Below are positions 52,092 through 59,472 of a DNA stretch of 64,000 nt, piece by piece. This stretch comes from a virus, in IMG/VR virus record IMGVR_UViG_3300020248_000002; one strand, given 5' to 3'. Under the pieces are notes generated by a model. The model worked only from the letters and a program-made list of their open reading frames with translations. It made no database searches and was not told where the DNA came from. The stretch's first letter is position 1, and each line of letters starts with the position of its first letter. The position numbers and the translations under genes are program-made.

Positions 52092-52888
52092 TGTTAGGTA
52101 CATATACATACAATGAAATATTCCGAAAGTCAGTTATTGCTTTTGGTACTTTGTTTAATAACATAGAAATTCGTAGAAAGAAAAATGCTACGGAATATGA
52201 GTATATGAAAGTGCCTTTGGCATATGGACCTAAACAAAAGTTTTTAGCAAGACTTCAACAAGTAGGAGATTTAACTAGGAAAGATGCGACTCAAATTACG
52301 CTTCCTAGGATTTCGTTTGAGATTTCTGGTTTCAATTACGACGCAACAAGAAAGGTCTCCCCAACACAGAGAGTTAGGACTGCTGTTGGAACTGACCTAC
52401 AAAAAGCGTTTATGCCAGTACCGTACAACGTTGACTTTGAGTTAGCAATTCTTTCAAAGAATCAAGATGACGGTTTACAAATCTTAGAACAAATACTTCC
52501 ATACTTCCAACCCACATTTAATATCACTGTACAACTGAACGATCAGTTACAGGAGAAAAAAGATTTTCCAGTAGTTTTAAATACAATATCTTATGATGAT
52601 GATTATGAAGGTGATTATACAACAAGAAGAACTCTCATATATACAATAACTTTCACTTGCAAAACATATATCTACGGTCCTGTTCTTGACGGTGAGAAAG
52701 AACTTATCCGTAAGGCAATCGTTGATACTGCAACTGATAATAAAACAAGTGCACCTCGTGAGATGAGATACACGGTCGAACCAGACCCAATCACTTCTGA
52801 TCCAGATGATGATTTTGGTTTTAATGAATTATTCAGTACTTTTAATGATGGAAAATCAAGAAATCCAGTCACAGGAAACGACGAGTAA
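52091..52888 (+). CDS. gp15: Tail sheath stabiliser / tail terminator gp15
   Basis: IAFGTLFNNI; VPLAYGPKQKFL; LPRISFE; PVPYN; QILEQILPYFQP. Confidence 0.95.
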   Translation: MLGTYTYNEIFRKSVIAFGTLFNNIEIRRKKNATEYEYMKVPLAYGPKQKFLARLQQVGDLTRKDATQITLPRISFEISGFNYDATRKVSPTQRVRTAVGTDLQKAFMPVPYNVDFELAILSKNQDDGLQILEQILPYFQPTFNITVQLNDQLQEKKDFPVVLNTISYDDDYEGDYTTRRTLIYTITFTCKTYIYGPVLDGEKELIRKAIVDTATDNKTSAPREMRYTVEPDPITSDPDDDFGFNELFSTFNDGKSRNPVTGNDE

Positions 52889-53306
52889 ATTCGACGGTAT
52901 TGAAGACGCTCTTGATGTAGAAACATCCATCGTTAAAGATGAGAAACCTGCATTAGAGAGAGTAGAAGATACACCTGTAAAACAAAACGAAGCAATTAAA
53001 AAAGACTACGAATATACTCGTGGCAATTTGTATTCGTTAATTGACAAGGGACAGGAAGCGGTAGACGGAATCCTAGAACTATCACAACAAACAGATTCAC
53101 CACGTGCCTATGAGGTAGCAGGTAATCTTATTAAGAACGTGGCAGATGCCACGGATAAACTAATAGACCTTCAGAAAAAAATGCAAGAATTAGAAGAAGG
53201 TCCAAAAGGTGCTGTAACAGGTAACGTTACTAACAACACAATGTTTGTTGGTAGCACTGCTGATCTTGCGAAATTCCTCAAACAGAAACAGAAAGAGGAT
53301 AAATAG
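52845..53306 (+). CDS. gp16: Terminase small subunit gp16
   Basis: DYEYTRGNL, SPRAYEV, L.DLQKK, NNTMFVGSTADL; start probably 52845 or 52848. Confidence 0.92.
   Translation: MMENQEIQSQETTSKFDGIEDALDVETSIVKDEKPALERVEDTPVKQNEAIKKDYEYTRGNLYSLIDKGQEAVDGILELSQQTDSPRAYEVAGNLIKNVADATDKLIDLQKKMQELEEGPKGAVTGNVTNNTMFVGSTADLAKFLKQKQKEDK
53298..53305 (+). promoter_or_regulatory. T4-type late promoter (GATAAATA)
   Basis: Overlaps the gp16 end, 28 nt upstream of 53334. Confidence 0.7.
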
Positions 53307-53333: not shown

Positions 53334-53882
53334 ATGTCTGTATTAAATGTCTTAGATACTACGACAGTGAGTGGTTCAGGTACTGCTTACATCGTCGTTA
53401 AAAGTGGAGTTGTACGTGCATATGCTGCATCTGCATCAACCATAAAATTTGATAGCGGTCCTGCTATTACACTTGCAGCAGGGGAAGCAGTTTTGCTTTC
53501 AGTAGGTAAATCAAAAAATATTAGTATTACTGGTGCAACTAATGCTAACGGTTCAGTATTTACTGTTGCAGGTGGTGGACACGGTACAGGAGCAGGTGGT
53601 CGTCACAGTTTTGCTGTAGGAGATTTTGTTCAGACTATAGATGGTGGTGACACAGGTTTTGGAACAGACTTTGAATCTGCTGCATCAGCAGGTAAGAAAG
53701 TGACAGCAGTTACTGACATAACAATTACTACAGACATTGATGCGTCAGGTGCAGGTTCTGCATATTCAATCAGTGATGCTGATGTAATCGCTAACACCGT
53801 TCCTATGTTACAAAGAACTGTTAAGTTAACAGCAGGTTCTGCGGACGTAGTTGTAGAACAAGTACAAGTTGTCGGAGGTTGA
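53334..53882 (+). CDS. Hypothetical beta-rich (probably virion) protein
   Basis: 182 aa, rich in A/G/T/S/V; late promoter upstream. Confidence 0.7.
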   Translation: MSVLNVLDTTTVSGSGTAYIVVKSGVVRAYAASASTIKFDSGPAITLAAGEAVLLSVGKSKNISITGATNANGSVFTVAGGGHGTGAGGRHSFAVGDFVQTIDGGDTGFGTDFESAASAGKKVTAVTDITITTDIDASGAGSAYSISDADVIANTVPMLQRTVKLTAGSADVVVEQVQVVGG

Positions 53883-53885
53883 TCC

Positions 53886-54029
53886 GTGGCGATACAAGAT
53901 ATTAATGGTCAATGGGTATGTGCATATTGTGGATTGAAGTCTCCTAAAGGACATTGGAGACCTAAAACGTGGATTGAAAAACACGAAAAAAATTGTCCTA
54001 GACACCCATCTAATAATCAAGTAGCATAA
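53886..54029 (+). CDS. Small C2HC zinc-finger-like protein, 47 aa (GTG start; not in ORF track)
   Basis: MAIQDINGQWVCAYCGLKSPKGHWRPKTWIEKHEKNCPRHPSNNQVA; GGAGG SD upstream; TAATG coupling to the next gene. Confidence 0.7.
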   Translation: MAIQDINGQWVCAYCGLKSPKGHWRPKTWIEKHEKNCPRHPSNNQVA

Positions 54030-55927
54030 TGAACAATCTTCAATCATTTTCTAACTTTACTGAACACTGTGGTTGCGATCATAGTGAAGACAAAAAGAAA
54101 AAATCTAAAGTTACTAAAGAAGAGATCATAAAAGAATATGGTGATCCTACAGTTAGTAAGAGATTGAGAGTTGCTCGTGCGATTGATTCAACGTTTAGAG
54201 GTAAAGCACCAAAGTACAATAGTAAGCGTGCTAAAATTTCTAATGCTTTGAAGATGTCATCAATAAAAGCAGAGACAAAAAAAAGAAAGGCAAAAGAAAA
54301 TCCATATTCAGCAGGTAAAAAATTAAAAGCAGCTCTTGGAATAAACAGTGAAGGTTATCTTCCAGAAGAGGGATATGATATTGCAAGAGATATGGGAATG
54401 GTAAAACCATCTAAAGATAAGAAAGATGCAACTACTGCTAACCATACAAGAGAAACTGAGACTGATGCTCAAAGAAAATTACGTATGCTAAAGCAGCAGA
54501 AGAATACTGCTAGAGCAGTTGAGAATGTTAAACAAAGACTTAGAGATAAGTATGGTAAGAATGCCATAATGGATGTAGGTAAGAAAAATGAAGAAGTAGA
54601 ACATCTTGATGAATTAAGTAAGACAACTACTGCGAACTATCTCTACCACGCAAAGGTAGATAAAAATTATGTTCACGGTGGCAAGATGGGTAAGTATGCA
54701 AAAGCGAGAGACAAAGGAATACAAAGAGCAGAGAAAAAACTAGGAAAAAAAGTTAGTGATAGAGTTAACTATGTTGCAGATACTGATACTCGCTCGATGA
54801 GACAAGATTCAAGTACATCAGCATACCCTAGAAAAATTAAGGTAAAAGAAGAAGTACAGTTAGAGAAAGTTAATCTAAGAGATAAGTCTACTCAGTATGC
54901 TAGAAGCACTAAAGAGGTAGATACTGCAATGACAGATCACGTCAATAGAACAAAAGGTAGACACTATGGTAAAGATGGTAAGGTCACAGAAGTTGGTCGT
55001 TATCGTAGACCAAGTAAGAGAGAAGCAAGAAATGAATTGATTGATTTGTATAAAGAAAGTTATGGTAGAGGTAGACTTACTAGCACTAATGATATGCAGA
55101 GTAAGTTATACGCTAAGAATAATAGTATGGGTAAACCAAGAACTGATGATGAGATCAGGAAAGAAAAAGGTGGACAAGCATTTCTTGATAGAATCAAAGC
55201 AGCAAAATCAAAAATGAAAAGTGAAGGAACTTCTTATGGTCTCTACAAGGGAACTGGTAAACCATCAGGTCCTATGGCAGCGTTTGCTAAGAAAACTAAG
55301 AAGAAAAAAGAAGTAAAAGAAGAAATGGGTAATATAGCACATACTAAAACTAAAAAAGGTGGAAAGACAATTATAAATGTAAATAAAAATGATGAGGCAG
55401 ATGCACAGAAAGCAATGAAGAATGATCCAAAATACATTCTTGGTAAGACTAGAGTGCAGTCATATAAAGAAGAATTTTATCAAAAAAGATATACTAGCAG
55501 TGGTTATAAACCTGTTGGTAAAAATAAGAGAATGGATCAGTCAAACAAAAGATCTGGTGATAGTAAAGCACAGTATAGAGACTTACATAAAGATCTTGCT
55601 AAGTATGGTCACGTTAAAACAGGTAAAGCAAGTAACCTTAAAAGTGGTTTGAAGAGTTTCAAGGAATCTGCGTGGCAACGTAAAGAAGGAAAGAACCCTA
55701 GTGGTGGGTTAAATGAAAAGGGAAGAAAGTCTTATGAAAGAGAAAATCCTGGTTCAGATCTCAAAGCACCTGTAACAGGTAGTCCAAAACCAGGTAGTAA
55801 GGCAGATAAAAGGCAAAACAATTTTTGCAAAAGAATGGGTGGAATGAGAGGACCTATGAAAGATGAGAAAGGTAGACCAACTCGTAAAGCATTAGCACTT
55901 AAAAAATGGAACTGTCGTAGTTCCTAG
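54029..55927 (+). CDS. Lys/Arg-rich modular protein, putative internal head protein; C-terminal AWQRKEGKNP.GGLN (DUF6321-like) module
   Basis: Basic blocks separated by Glu-rich hydrophobic-x-E linkers; N-terminal SFSNFTE. Confidence 0.65.
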   Translation: MNNLQSFSNFTEHCGCDHSEDKKKKSKVTKEEIIKEYGDPTVSKRLRVARAIDSTFRGKAPKYNSKRAKISNALKMSSIKAETKKRKAKENPYSAGKKLKAALGINSEGYLPEEGYDIARDMGMVKPSKDKKDATTANHTRETETDAQRKLRMLKQQKNTARAVENVKQRLRDKYGKNAIMDVGKKNEEVEHLDELSKTTTANYLYHAKVDKNYVHGGKMGKYAKARDKGIQRAEKKLGKKVSDRVNYVADTDTRSMRQDSSTSAYPRKIKVKEEVQLEKVNLRDKSTQYARSTKEVDTAMTDHVNRTKGRHYGKDGKVTEVGRYRRPSKREARNELIDLYKESYGRGRLTSTNDMQSKLYAKNNSMGKPRTDDEIRKEKGGQAFLDRIKAAKSKMKSEGTSYGLYKGTGKPSGPMAAFAKKTKKKKEVKEEMGNIAHTKTKKGGKTIINVNKNDEADAQKAMKNDPKYILGKTRVQSYKEEFYQKRYTSSGYKPVGKNKRMDQSNKRSGDSKAQYRDLHKDLAKYGHVKTGKASNLKSGLKSFKESAWQRKEGKNPSGGLNEKGRKSYERENPGSDLKAPVTGSPKPGSKADKRQNNFCKRMGGMRGPMKDEKGRPTRKALALKKWNCRSS

Positions 55928-55949: not shown

Positions 55950-56567
55950 ATGCAACCTGACGTTATTGATTTATTTCCATCCACAGTTCTAAGATTCAGA
56001 CACGATGACTCTGAGATAAGGGATGAACTTGAAAAAGTTATTAGTGATGTACAAGAGAAAGAACAATTAATTCTTCACTTCGGTGATGATCCTTCCAAGC
56101 AAGATCATTGGAGGGATTTTTTTCGTGCGTATGAAATGCCAAACTTAGAATCATATATTGCAGAGTGTGTTATTAAATATGTTGGTCACGATAATTGGAA
56201 TATACCTGAGTCTTGGTTAAATATATACCCAACAGGTGCTAATCAGAATCAACATATGCACCCAGGATTTGAGTTGTCAGGATGTTATTATCATAAGACA
56301 AGTCCAGAACAAGGATTAATTAATTTTCATAGTCCACTTGTACAAGCAAGAATGAGTTGTTTTGCTACTTATCAAGAGATGGCAGTAGAAACATTCCCTG
56401 ATACTTTGATATTATTTCCATCTTGGTTGGAACATTCTACTACACAGAACTATTCAAGAGATCAAAAATATTCAATAGGATTTAATGTAAAGGTAAATAA
56501 AACAGGAGACTTTCCATTACACGGACAGTGGTATGGAAACCATACAATAGTACACAATAAGAACTAA
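55950..56567 (+). CDS. Putative 2OG-Fe(II) oxygenase (TIGR02466-like)
   Basis: LFPS, SWLN, HMHP (HxH), LSGCYY, LILFPSWLEH, SIGFN. Confidence 0.85.
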   Translation: MQPDVIDLFPSTVLRFRHDDSEIRDELEKVISDVQEKEQLILHFGDDPSKQDHWRDFFRAYEMPNLESYIAECVIKYVGHDNWNIPESWLNIYPTGANQNQHMHPGFELSGCYYHKTSPEQGLINFHSPLVQARMSCFATYQEMAVETFPDTLILFPSWLEHSTTQNYSRDQKYSIGFNVKVNKTGDFPLHGQWYGNHTIVHNKN

Positions 56568-56740
56568 TGGTTGTCTGGGGTGTTGTTATTATGATTGCAA
56601 TACTTGTTGTAATAGTTACTTGGTATATCGTCTATATACTAAGGACTGCATATATGGAGATGAACGATGGGAGCAATGGTTCCACCAAGCAGGAAGAGTT
56701 GCTACAACTTCCGAGTGACAGAGATAAACAGGGTAGTTGA
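56567..56740 (+). CDS. Small single-pass membrane protein, 57 aa (not in ORF track)
   Basis: MVVWGVVIMIAILVVIVTWYIVYILRTAYMEMNDGSNGSTKQEELLQLPSDRDKQGS; TAATG coupling. Confidence 0.65.
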   Translation: MVVWGVVIMIAILVVIVTWYIVYILRTAYMEMNDGSNGSTKQEELLQLPSDRDKQGS

Positions 56741-57131
56741 TGGTGACACTATTGACGTTACTATCGATCTAGGTTTTGATCTATACAAAAAAGAAAGGGT
56801 GAGAGTAGCAGGAGTCGATACTCCTGAGAAACGCACCCGTGACTTGGAAGAGAAAGCATTAGGTATAGATGCTACTAATTGGATAAAAGAAAAATTGGAG
56901 GGTGCTATTGATGGAGAGTCTGAACTTACTATACGAACTGAACTCAAGGGAGGGATGGGTAAGTATGGTCGTTTGCTTGGTTGGTTATATGTTGGTGATG
57001 AAGATGTATCTCTCAACGAGCAAATGATAACCGAAGGATATGCGTGGTCTTATGATGGTGGTACAAAGAAAAAAGACTTTGAGGAACTACGCGAAATTCG
57101 TCGTTCATATGGTACACTTGTAGCAGGTTAA
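56667..57131 (+). CDS. SNase-like (thermonuclease family) nuclease
   Basis: RVVDGDTIDV.IDLGF, RVRVAGVDTPE, GKYGRLLG, LNE.MI.EGYA..YDGG. Confidence 0.9.
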   Translation: MGAMVPPSRKSCYNFRVTEINRVVDGDTIDVTIDLGFDLYKKERVRVAGVDTPEKRTRDLEEKALGIDATNWIKEKLEGAIDGESELTIRTELKGGMGKYGRLLGWLYVGDEDVSLNEQMITEGYAWSYDGGTKKKDFEELREIRRSYGTLVAG

Positions 57132-57133
57132 CT

Positions 57134-57823
57134 GTGACAAATCTTTGTGATGAGTTAGCGGATCTTATTCGCAGGAACATTAGTGATTTGCCTGACCTTG
57201 AGGTTATGGAATCGGATCATAGTGTTATAGAGCACGAGAAAGTGACTATACACAATGAGATGTGGAAGTGCAAAGGACTCAGAAAATTACATATTGAAAG
57301 AGCGAATACTGACAAGATAGAGATCATCCACTGTGTTCTTTATCCAGATCCAGAATATCGTTTACCTATTTTTGGTTGTGACATTATCCAAACAACTTCA
57401 ACTATTACTGCTGCTATTGTTGATGTGTCTCCTGTACACGGGGTGGATCTCAATCCTCAGTTATCAGTAGTTAGTGAAAAATATAAATTTAAAGACAAGA
57501 GACCTCTTCCTATATGGGCAGAGGATATATTCTCGAACCATTGTAAATTTGCTAGATTGAAAGATCAAAAAGCAAGAGATGATTTCTATACTGTAGTTCA
57601 GAAATATTTACTAATATATTGTAATGCTGTGAGACACGCTAAGAAAGATCCACATTCTCCTTTTATACCAATAATGAAAAGATTAGATGATCAGTGTTGG
57701 TACTGTGTGTCTCAAAGAAAAAATCAAAAAACTAAAGCAGTATTGTCACAGTGGTTTGATCCCCTCTGGGCAGATAAATACATAAACAATGTCTTATTTG
57801 ACAAACCTTGGAGTAAAGATTAA
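57134..57823 (+). CDS. pcyA: Phycocyanobilin:ferredoxin oxidoreductase (ferredoxin-dependent bilin reductase)
   Basis: LRKLHIE (Glu76-equivalent), IHCVLYPDP.Y.LPIFGCD (His88, Asp105), AAIVDVSP, RPLP.W..IFS, Q..YC..Q.KN.KT..VL, WA.KYI..VLFD. Confidence 0.9.
   Translation: MTNLCDELADLIRRNISDLPDLEVMESDHSVIEHEKVTIHNEMWKCKGLRKLHIERANTDKIEIIHCVLYPDPEYRLPIFGCDIIQTTSTITAAIVDVSPVHGVDLNPQLSVVSEKYKFKDKRPLPIWAEDIFSNHCKFARLKDQKARDDFYTVVQKYLLIYCNAVRHAKKDPHSPFIPIMKRLDDQCWYCVSQRKNQKTKAVLSQWFDPLWADKYINNVLFDKPWSKD
57773..57780 (+). promoter_or_regulatory. T4-type late promoter (GATAAATA) inside the pcyA 3' end
   Basis: 42 nt upstream of gp17. Confidence 0.6.
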
Positions 57824-59472
57824 TGGCAGAAAATCAGATATACTTAGGCAACCCCAATCTTAAGAAAGCAAACGTTGCAACTAACTTCTCACCAGAACAG
57901 GTAAGAGAGTTTGTTAAATGTAGTAGAGATCCTGCATATTTTATTCGTAATTATATTAGGATCGTATCTCTTGATGAAGGTGTTATACCTTTTAATATGT
58001 ACGATTTCCAAGAGGAGATGGTAAAAAGTTTTCACGAGAATAGATTTAATATTGCTAAATTACCTAGACAGTCTGGTAAGTCAACTATTGTAACATCATA
58101 TCTATTATGGTATGTAATTTTTAACGATAACGTCAATGTCGCAATCCTCGCAAACAAAGCCCCAACTGCTAGAGAAATGTTGGGACGCTTACAGTTATCT
58201 TATGAGAACCTTCCTAAATGGATGCAGCAAGGTATTGTTGGTTGGAACAAGGGGTCAGTCGAATTGGAGAACGGATCTCGTCTCCTTGCTTCATCTACTT
58301 CTGCTTCTGCTGTTCGTGGGATGTCCTTTAATATTATCTTCCTTGATGAGTTTGCGTTCGTTCCAAATAATATTGCTGAACAGTTCTTTGCTTCTGTTTA
58401 TCCTACTATCTCATCTGGTAAATCTACAAAAGTTATTATCATATCTACCCCACACGGGATGAATATGTATTATAAGATATGGCACGATGCAGAAAGAAAT
58501 AAGAATGAATATGTTAATACAGAAGTGCACTGGTCACAGGTTCCAGGTAGAGATCAGAAGTGGAAAGAGCAAACTATAGCAAACACATCAGAAGCACAGT
58601 TCAGAGTTGAGTTTGAATGTGAGTTTCTAGGATCTGTAGATACACTAATTTCCGCAAGTAAATTAAGATTGATGGTTTATGAAGATCCTCTACACTCCAG
58701 TGTAGGACTGGATGTTTATGAAGATCCGATTGACGGACACACTTATACAATGACTGTAGACGTAGCACGCGGAGTAGATGGTGACTATAGTGCATTTTGT
58801 ATATTTGATACTACAGAACCTCCGTATAAATTAGTAGCAAAATATAGAAGTAATACAGTTAAACCCCTTTTATTCCCAGATATTATAGTCAAGACTGCAA
58901 GTGCATACAACCACGCTTTTGTATTAGTAGAAGTAAATGACGTTGGTGCACAGGTAGCAGACATCATACAGTATGATCTTGAGTATGACAATCTATTAAT
59001 GTCTGCTATGCGTGGTAGAGCAGGACAAGTTATAGGACAAGGATTCTCTGGTGGTAAAGTACAACTTGGTGTAAAGATGTCTAGTGCTGTAAAGAAAGTT
59101 GGTTGTTCTAACTTAAAACAATTAATAGAAGATGATAAGATGACTCTATGTGATTATGATATTATCTCAGAACTAACTACGTTTATTCAGAAAGGACAGT
59201 CGTGGCAAGCAGAAGAAGGATGTAATGATGACCTTGCTATGTGTTTAGTTATCTTTGCTTGGTTAGCAGTGCAACCATATTTCAAAGAGATACACGATAA
59301 TGATGTTCGTGTAAAGATGTATGAAGAACAAAGAGAAGCAATAGAAGCAGATATGGCACCATTTGGTTTTGTTGATAATGGTATAGAAGATACAACATTT
59401 ATTGATGAAGATGGTAACGTCTGGAACTCTGATCCTTATGGTGAAAGAACCTATATGTGGGAATATAGATGA
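57823..59472 (+). CDS. gp17: Terminase large subunit gp17
   Basis: YLGNPNLK, PRQSGKST Walker A, IFLDEFAF Walker B, ISTPHG, VDVARG, NDDLAM. Confidence 0.97.
   Translation: MAENQIYLGNPNLKKANVATNFSPEQVREFVKCSRDPAYFIRNYIRIVSLDEGVIPFNMYDFQEEMVKSFHENRFNIAKLPRQSGKSTIVTSYLLWYVIFNDNVNVAILANKAPTAREMLGRLQLSYENLPKWMQQGIVGWNKGSVELENGSRLLASSTSASAVRGMSFNIIFLDEFAFVPNNIAEQFFASVYPTISSGKSTKVIIISTPHGMNMYYKIWHDAERNKNEYVNTEVHWSQVPGRDQKWKEQTIANTSEAQFRVEFECEFLGSVDTLISASKLRLMVYEDPLHSSVGLDVYEDPIDGHTYTMTVDVARGVDGDYSAFCIFDTTEPPYKLVAKYRSNTVKPLLFPDIIVKTASAYNHAFVLVEVNDVGAQVADIIQYDLEYDNLLMSAMRGRAGQVIGQGFSGGKVQLGVKMSSAVKKVGCSNLKQLIEDDKMTLCDYDIISELTTFIQKGQSWQAEEGCNDDLAMCLVIFAWLAVQPYFKEIHDNDVRVKMYEEQREAIEADMAPFGFVDNGIEDTTFIDEDGNVWNSDPYGERTYMWEYR

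Follow-up and report, generated by a model that had tools for sequence, protein, structure and literature searches.

A shuffled chain of small basic modules in a T4-like cyanophage, a candidate precursor of head cargo

Introduction

T4-like cyanophages are among the most abundant viruses of the sea. In T4 itself, proteins destined for the interior of the head bear a capsid-targeting tag, a ten-residue N-terminal peptide (PMC8442874), in which residues 4 and 7 serve targeting and residues 8 and 10 serve processing, an Asp at position 10 blocking the latter (PMC9026906). The prohead protease gp21 cuts after L/I-X-E (PMC9026906). Among the cyanophages, purified virions of S-SM1 yielded 13 peptide counts for a member of the gene family T4-GC119 (PMC3037559 Table S8), a family whose gene sizes run from 276 to 2985 bp across the phages that carry it (PMC3037559). 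Here we describe a gene of this family, encoding a basic polyprotein of 632 residues, in a window of 64,000 nucleotides from the virus record IMGVR_UViG_3300020248_000002. The window belongs to a T4-like cyanomyovirus contig of 112 kb in IMG/VR, whose completeness is estimated at 63%. Our literature search found no paper defining the internal head proteins of T4-like cyanophages, none on DUF6321, the domain with which the polyprotein ends, and none linking cyanophage proteins to the capsid-targeting sequence.

It seems to us reasonably probable that the gene specifies a head-cargo polyprotein, in which a single gene would unite the separately tagged modules of a T4-type internal-protein system and retain the joints between them as sites of Glu-specific cleavage. 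The observations that bear on this reading, and on three competing ones, are presented below.

Results

The polyprotein is a short acidic leader followed by ten basic blocks. A preliminary description of this DNA had pictured a leader and about nine mutually unrelated basic blocks set apart by Glu linkers. The open reading frame (ORF) is present as described, and cutting it at these linkers yields an acidic leader of 12 residues, free of Lys and Arg, and ten blocks of 24-86 residues (2.8-9.6 kDa), so that the picture holds with ten blocks in place of about nine. All ten are net positive (+1 to +15) and without significant similarity to one another, the best block-to-block BLASTP match having E = 0.018. 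For the polyprotein as a whole, Lys and Arg make up 24.8% and Asp and Glu 12.3% of residues, giving a net charge of +79 and an isoelectric point of 10.06. The gene and its parts are as follows.

54029..55927, plus strand: polyprotein gene, 632 residues
54029..54064, plus strand: leader, residues 1-12, acidic, ending F-T-E, kept in close relatives
54065..54136, plus strand: first block, residues 13-36, with an H-C-G-C-D-H motif and a Lys run, ending EEIIKE
54137..54370, plus strand: basic block B, residues 37-114, net +13, ending Y-L-P-E-E
54371..54613, plus strand: basic block C, residues 115-195, net +4, ending EEVEHLDE
54614..54865, plus strand: mobile cassette D, residues 196-279, net +10
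54866..55057, plus strand: basic block E, residues 280-343, net +7, ending L-Y-K-E
55058..55225, plus strand: basic block F, residues 344-399, net +7, ending M-K-S-E
55226..55324, plus strand: basic block G, residues 400-432, net +6, ending E-V-K-E-E
55325..55474, plus strand: basic block H, residues 433-482, net +5, ending S-Y-K-E-E
55475..55666, plus strand: basic block I, residues 483-546, net +12, ending S-F-K-E
55667..55927, plus strand: C-terminal DUF6321 domain, residues 547-632, net +15, with two conserved Cys, and the stop codon

The sole Pfam match of the polyprotein is PF19846 (DUF6321) at residues 554-627, with 84.8 bits for a cut-off of 28.5; the match scored 90.4 bits in the genome search. 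No enzymatic domain was detected with Pfam or PHROGs, which returned only DUF6321-type families of unknown function. AlphaFold2 modelled the whole polyprotein as isolated helices and disorder with a mean predicted local distance difference test (pLDDT) of 44, the C-terminal domain alone reaching ~80. A fold search with the whole-polyprotein model was set aside at this mean pLDDT.

Blocks are shuffled among relatives, and the recurrent junctions lie at the Glu linkers. Comparison was made with about 120 close metagenomic proteins obtained by a word-index search and aligned jointly and pairwise. When cut at Glu linkers, these relatives display 38 block architectures; when they are aligned, entire blocks are seen to be missing, exchanged for others, added or relocated. 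The homologues are thus not collinear, and the proposal that modules are shuffled with boundaries at the Glu linkers is borne out. The commonest architecture, A-B-C-E-F-G-H-I-J, lacks D and is found in 42 proteins; D is shifted between H and I in 20, and the order of the polyprotein is kept in 12. Cassette D is swapped for three other cassettes in some relatives, a different cassette occupies the position of block I in relative P0106, and the order F-G-E, with block E after G, occurs in 8 more distant proteins which also bear S-SM1-type modules.

Five junctions recur (187/188, 273/274, 342/343, 394-398 and 479/480) and all are at Glu linkers. The commonest cassette boundary is 187/188, which together with 273/274 delimits a deletion of residues 188-273 in 70 relatives. 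Junctions 342/343 and 398/399 bound an exact loss of block F (343-398) in 2 relatives, inserts of 35-36 residues are found at 394-398 in 11, and a block of 86-88 residues, corresponding to that at 196-279 here, is inserted at 479/480 in 29. Four of the five recurrent junctions are no more than 2 residues from a hydrophobic-x-E or EE site, sites which make up 10.8% of the chain (binomial p about 6e-4, by hand arithmetic). Block H recurs, there set between V-K-E linkers, in an unrelated protein of 232 residues encoded by P-RSM4 and S-TIM4 at another genome position, with 86% DNA identity over 107 nucleotides.

This 232-residue protein (PRSM4_198 of P-RSM4, T4-GC657, L005:3593-4291; ORF_191 of S-TIM4) is annotated "major head protein", a label that we reject, for this is no capsid protein. 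At its N-terminus stands a short copy of the G-P-V-A-G-F-D-P-V segment from near the N-terminus of mature gp23, and basic modules follow, block H among them; the protein may be either a capsid-arm mimic for incorporation or a remnant of recombination.

At the DNA level, junctions 187 and 273 share the microhomology GAAGAAGTA, which could alone explain the recombination sites. This would suit the principal competing explanation, in which the polyprotein is an uncleaved, disordered, polycationic virion protein that organises or neutralises packaged DNA, the joints being flexible spacers and recombination hot-spots. The isolated helices and low pLDDT of the AlphaFold2 model agree with such a chain, which we regard as rather unlikely for reasons that appear at the joints themselves.

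The joint motif is family-wide. The linkers had also been proposed to contain sites like those of the prohead protease. The polyprotein by itself gives little ground for judging this part of the proposal, such sites being only weakly above chance: hydrophobic-x-E occurs 11 times and 8.3 times in shuffled sequences (p 0.18), EE 6 and 2.6 times (p 0.04), hydrophobic-K-E, a motif chosen post hoc, 6 and 1.4 times (p 0.003), and strict [LI]-x-E 4 and 3.06 times (p 0.36). The strict motif being at chance, single-sequence motif statistics are not used as evidence here, and its lack of enrichment is a point in favour of an uncleaved chain.

Across the family, as at the shuffle junctions, the proposal fared better. 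In 122 of 143 internal DUF6321 copies, drawn from diverse proteins, a hydrophobic-x-E ends 2-4 residues before the conserved Trp, for a background of 6.2%. The residue at the Glu position (P1) is acidic in 131 of the 141 copies scored and is Glu in all 131, Asp in 0, whereas the other acidic linker residues are Glu and Asp in a ratio of 158:108 (Fisher p = 1.6e-23). Two residues earlier, at P3, 111 of the 131 copies have L, V, I or M (L 40, V 35, I 24, M 12), and P1' before DUF6321 is S, A, T, V, K or G. The Glu joint is a feature of the junction and not of the DUF6321 fold, because stand-alone forms start at the domain without Glu; a large group of such proteins, of 92-93 residues, begins M-A-K-T-P-A-W at the domain itself. 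Three other recurrent modules also follow this type of joint. Over 45,624 residues of the family with DUF6321 masked, [LI]-x-E is present at 1.69 times the shuffled level, a figure whose z-scores overstate independence since the family representatives share modules. No such rise is seen for the controls hydrophobic-x-D (1.09), hydrophobic-E (0.89) and hydrophobic-x-x-E (1.05). E-x-hydrophobic reaches 1.31 times shuffled and is thus enriched too, indicating that part of the [LI]-x-E enrichment is acidic-hydrophobic clustering in linkers.

The motif [LVIM]-x-E with its 131:0 preference for Glu over Asp is consistent with cleavage after Glu. It is comparative evidence, such as that of the recurrent junctions at the linkers, and not motif counts in one sequence, that carries the case for protease sites. 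A flexible spacer needs neither Glu over Asp at a fixed position (131:0 vs 158:108) nor L, V, I or M two residues before it, and an uncleaved chain leaves unexplained the resemblance to the T4 tag that is found at N-termini and inside chains.

T4-like tags occur at N-termini and within chains. N-termini were scored with BLOSUM62 against the T4 tag, anchored at Met1, a score of 25 or more being taken as strong. Strong tags are present at 19 of 146 family N-termini, and the best family leader is identical to the T4 tag at 8 of 10 positions; among 1215 control ORFs taken from these loci, only 1 has such a tag. The likeness of the leader to a capsid-targeting sequence is supported across the family and weak for the polyprotein itself, whose leader scores about 8 by hand calculation and matches the tag at L4, Q5 and F7 only. 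Clear T4-like tags are found in relatives in which a similar Cys module follows the leader. The control ORFs in the IMG/VR loci include a few more T4-tag-like N-termini, possibly those of further cargo genes.

Internal tag-like elements number 47, compared with 17.1 in shuffles, and the best of them stand directly before modules. The best internal match in the polyprotein is EEIIKE, with a score of 18. Modules of one and the same type can follow either an N-terminal tag or an internal tag-like joint. This agrees with a fusion of genes that were once tagged separately, and in-frame fusion of internal-protein genes, each with its own tag, is the most likely origin of the array.

That tag-like elements occur internally would also agree with a second alternative, in which joints and tag-like elements are loading signals only, binding the scaffolding core with an avidity conferred by repetition, the chain being left uncut or losing the leader alone, as in the once-cut T4 internal proteins. 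In T4, the targeting positions (4, 7) and processing positions (8, 10) are indeed separable. However, the best-conserved joint features are the processing positions, hydrophobic P3 and Glu P1, and not the targeting half, and most joints of the polyprotein are too short for a full tag; we consider this alternative improbable.

A candidate cognate protease is encoded on the contig. The contig encodes a homologue of gp21 with 43% identity to T4 gp21 over 147 residues, and also gp22 and gp23. The phage gp23 carries I-L-T-E|A-A, comparable with the T4 gp23 site F-L-T-E|A-E. In a BLASTP alignment of the two gp23 proteins, the L-T-E sites do not fall in the same column; we infer that they are equivalent from the identity of the motif and a similar distance to a conserved downstream segment. 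The gp21 homologue of the contig would share the specificity for Glu.

The polyprotein belongs to a family with a member in virions. DUF6321 is the only part common to the whole family. A scan of 1.84 billion representatives placed it in 3239 clusters at 50% identity, mostly as the C-terminal part of the protein and sometimes as the first or an internal part. The AlphaFold2 model of the domain has three helices (mean pLDDT 76); Foldseek found no fold match for it in the PDB, and BFVD gave only family members. Staphylococcal nuclease variants appeared as candidate matches and were rejected as noise (best Foldseek E 4.4). Among the BFVD hits of the domain are uncultured-phage proteins (A0A6J5R4H4 and A0A6J5N5R9) whose names refer to an AAA domain (1143 residues) and a ferritin/DPS domain (679 residues), and DUF6321 may hence carry enzymes as cargo too.

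Positional orthologues follow g16 in S-E7 (annotated "structural protein, T4 GC0119"), ACG-2014f and S-SM1, while the P-SSM2 copy sits just before g16. The gene order g16, GC403/DUF7243, GC119 is the same here and in S-SM1 and S-E7, with an ORF of 47 residues intervening here, and the S-SM1 gene in this syntenic position, SSM1_115, is T4-GC119. The isolate orthologues share only the C-terminal domain with the polyprotein and are otherwise chains of different small Cys-containing modules. The expectation that the polyprotein is a virion protein has been borne out for a family member only, by the 13 peptide counts for S-SM1 GC119, a detection which does not place that protein within the particle. 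BFVD gives the name "Virion protein" to a DUF6321 protein of S-SCSM1, a phage with a measured virion proteome (PMC9602691).

In all five T7-like podoviruses examined (pelagiphages Eistla and HTVC131P; cyanophages S-RIP1, S-SBP1 and S-CBP4), DUF6321 is a leaderless stand-alone protein of 80-93 residues whose gene lies between the scaffold and capsid genes. These single-domain proteins work without processing, as an uncleaved chain would. The comparison of virus types between leaderless and tagged forms covers these five Autographiviridae and a handful of Kyanoviridae; among the IMG/VR loci, marker tblastn and PHROGs gave contexts too heterogeneous to classify.

The genome position allows a third alternative, that the polyprotein is a neck, tail or packaging accessory protein rather than head cargo; the location of its gene amid the neck genes, terS and terL would then reflect packaging or head completion. 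The gene does lie in the g13-g18 block, and virion proteomics does not localise the protein. Set against this are the podovirus DUF6321 gene between scaffold and capsid genes, a disordered and highly basic chain unlike known neck or tail parts, and the T4-like tags, which point to the prohead core. We consider an accessory role very improbable.

The gene lies in a late-type operon between g16 and g17. Upstream of the polyprotein gene the order is g13, g14, g15, g16, the DUF7243 gene and the 47-residue ORF; downstream it is a 2OG-Fe(II) oxygenase, a staphylococcal-nuclease homologue, a bilin reductase, g17 and g18. The features concerned are as follows.

52806-53306: g16, upstream border of the variable island
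53298..53305, plus strand: late-promoter-like GATAAATA, ~28 nucleotides 5' of the DUF7243 gene
53334..53882, plus strand: DUF7243 gene (Pfam PF23891, E = 5.7e-49), conserved upstream neighbour
53886..54029, plus strand: ORF of 47 residues with a GTG start and a C-x2-C...H-x3-C pattern, small and zinc-finger-like
57823-59472, plus strand: g17, downstream border of the variable island

The sequence GATAAATA fits the late promoter consensus of S-PM2, NATAAATA (PMC2984593), and probably drives the operon that holds the polyprotein gene; no plus-strand terminator-like site was found between it and the polyprotein ORF. The core ATAAATA is present in 8 copies in the window (6254, 8732, 31273, 34861, 44079, 53299, 57774 and 59741), all 8 on the plus strand, where 26.7 copies are expected. 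At least four of them stand just 5' of plus-strand gene starts (44116, 53334, g17 and g18), and the core seems to be avoided elsewhere in the window. The position, the promoter-like site and the uninterrupted path to the gene support the assignment to a late operon in the g16-g17 island. The TAA stop of the 47-residue ORF overlaps the ATG of the polyprotein gene (TAATG), an overlap which suggests coupled translation of the two.

The DUF7243 gene is the positional counterpart of T4-GC403, and its S-SM1 counterpart, SSM1_114, precedes T4-GC119. GC403 is a virion structural protein with 60 peptide counts in S-SM1 virions (PMC3037559 Table S8).

Further along the island, at 56567-57131 of the window on the plus strand, the staphylococcal-nuclease homologue (154 residues, PF00565) is preceded by an overlapping hydrophobic ORF of 57 residues. 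A staphylococcal-type nuclease has been loaded into T4 heads by tag fusion in experiments.

Discussion

If the polyprotein is head cargo, the chain would be made late and enter the prohead core, drawn in by DUF6321, by the tag-like leader and linkers, or by all of these together. A gp21-type protease would then cut after the Glu of at least some joints, and the basic pieces of 3-10 kDa would stay with the packaged DNA, much like T4 IPI, IPII and IPIII. The joints act as recombination points as well, where phages gain or lose modules, relocate them and trade them with one another.

In addition to the acidic-hydrophobic clustering and the shared modules already described, several observations weigh against this head-cargo reading. 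In the polyprotein itself the strict protease motif is at the level of chance, most joints are V/Y/F/I-K-E, and M-K-S-E is without a hydrophobic P3. The leader is weakly T4-like, its F-T-E being at positions 10-12 and the Glu hence two residues late, and neither a leader-pattern search nor the T4-tag score found another ORF of the 112-kb contig that shares it. The orthologues of P-SSM2, ACG-2014f, S-E7 and S-SM1 are without an N-terminal tag, so that loading may in truth depend on the C-terminal DUF6321 domain or on tag-like linkers within the chain. In the IMG/VR loci, DUF6321 often occurs as a leaderless protein of its own. It does so too in the five T7-like podoviruses, and as T7-like phages are not known to have a prohead protease, it follows that the domain needs no processing. 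Finally, the proteomic signal from S-SM1 leaves the site of GC119 within the virion unspecified.

A broader version of the head-cargo reading, which we put forward tentatively and hold to be possible rather than probable, is that marine T4-like phages keep a recombining polyprotein library of small basic peptides. The joints would serve at once as loading signals, Glu-specific protease sites and recombination points, and each lineage would inject its own mix for DNA condensation, host takeover or the blocking of defences. Should the chain be cut and its pieces injected, this would explain the orphan family DUF6321 and the "structural proteins of unknown function" of cyanophage virions, extend the T4 capsid-targeting/gp21 system far beyond the enterobacterial phages, and bring to light a shuffled repertoire of peptides that are candidates for host takeover or anti-defence. 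For mass spectrometry, the joint rule [LVIM]-x-Glu offers a concrete and testable prediction.

Among known systems, the core precursors of adenovirus (pVII, pX/mu) are cut by the viral protease inside the capsid. Basic, DNA-condensing peptides are there freed from precursors in the assembled particle, a likeness that is analogy only, as virus, protease and sequences are unrelated. The polyvalent proteins named by Iyer, Burroughs and Aravind in 2017 reportedly chain enzymatic and anti-defence domains that are delivered with the DNA; the polyprotein differs in having no enzymatic domain detectable with Pfam or PHROGs. In the giant phages phiKZ and SPN3US, a diverged gp21-like protease cleaves many internal or ejected head proteins, as predicted here, on the C-terminal side of a Glu that follows a short motif (PMC9026906). 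These proteins differ in being mostly large and separate, with a single trimming site or a few, and they do not form shuffled arrays of tiny basic pieces. Cyanophage T4-GC119 (Sullivan et al. 2010, PMC3037559), or DUF6321, agrees with the polyprotein in its position after g16 and GC403, its C-terminal domain and its modular build, and has been annotated only as a hypothetical or structural protein.

The closest parallel in mechanism is with IPI, IPII, IPIII and Alt of T4. Like the pieces predicted here (2.8-9.6 kDa), the T4 internal proteins are small and basic, of about 8, 10 and 20 kDa (PMC9026906). Both have an acidic N-terminus that ends in hydrophobic-x-Glu, a tag in T4 and a weak look-alike of it here, and a gp21 homologue is encoded in the genome; in both systems the cargo is diverse, in T4 with only the tag conserved (PMC3012670) and in the DUF6321 family with a best tag that is identical at 8 of 10 positions. 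In T4, however, the proteins are encoded by separate genes and cut once, whereas here modules are strung in one gene with tag-like or minimal Glu joints. The constant C-terminal DUF6321 is absent from T4, and the leader of the polyprotein has diverged. Pfam, which returned DUF6321 only, gave no sign of homology to the T4 internal proteins, with whose sequences no direct comparison was made. The relation is one of resemblance in mechanism and not of membership, and a library of the kind proposed would be a combinatorial counterpart of the hypervariable internal-protein locus of T4.

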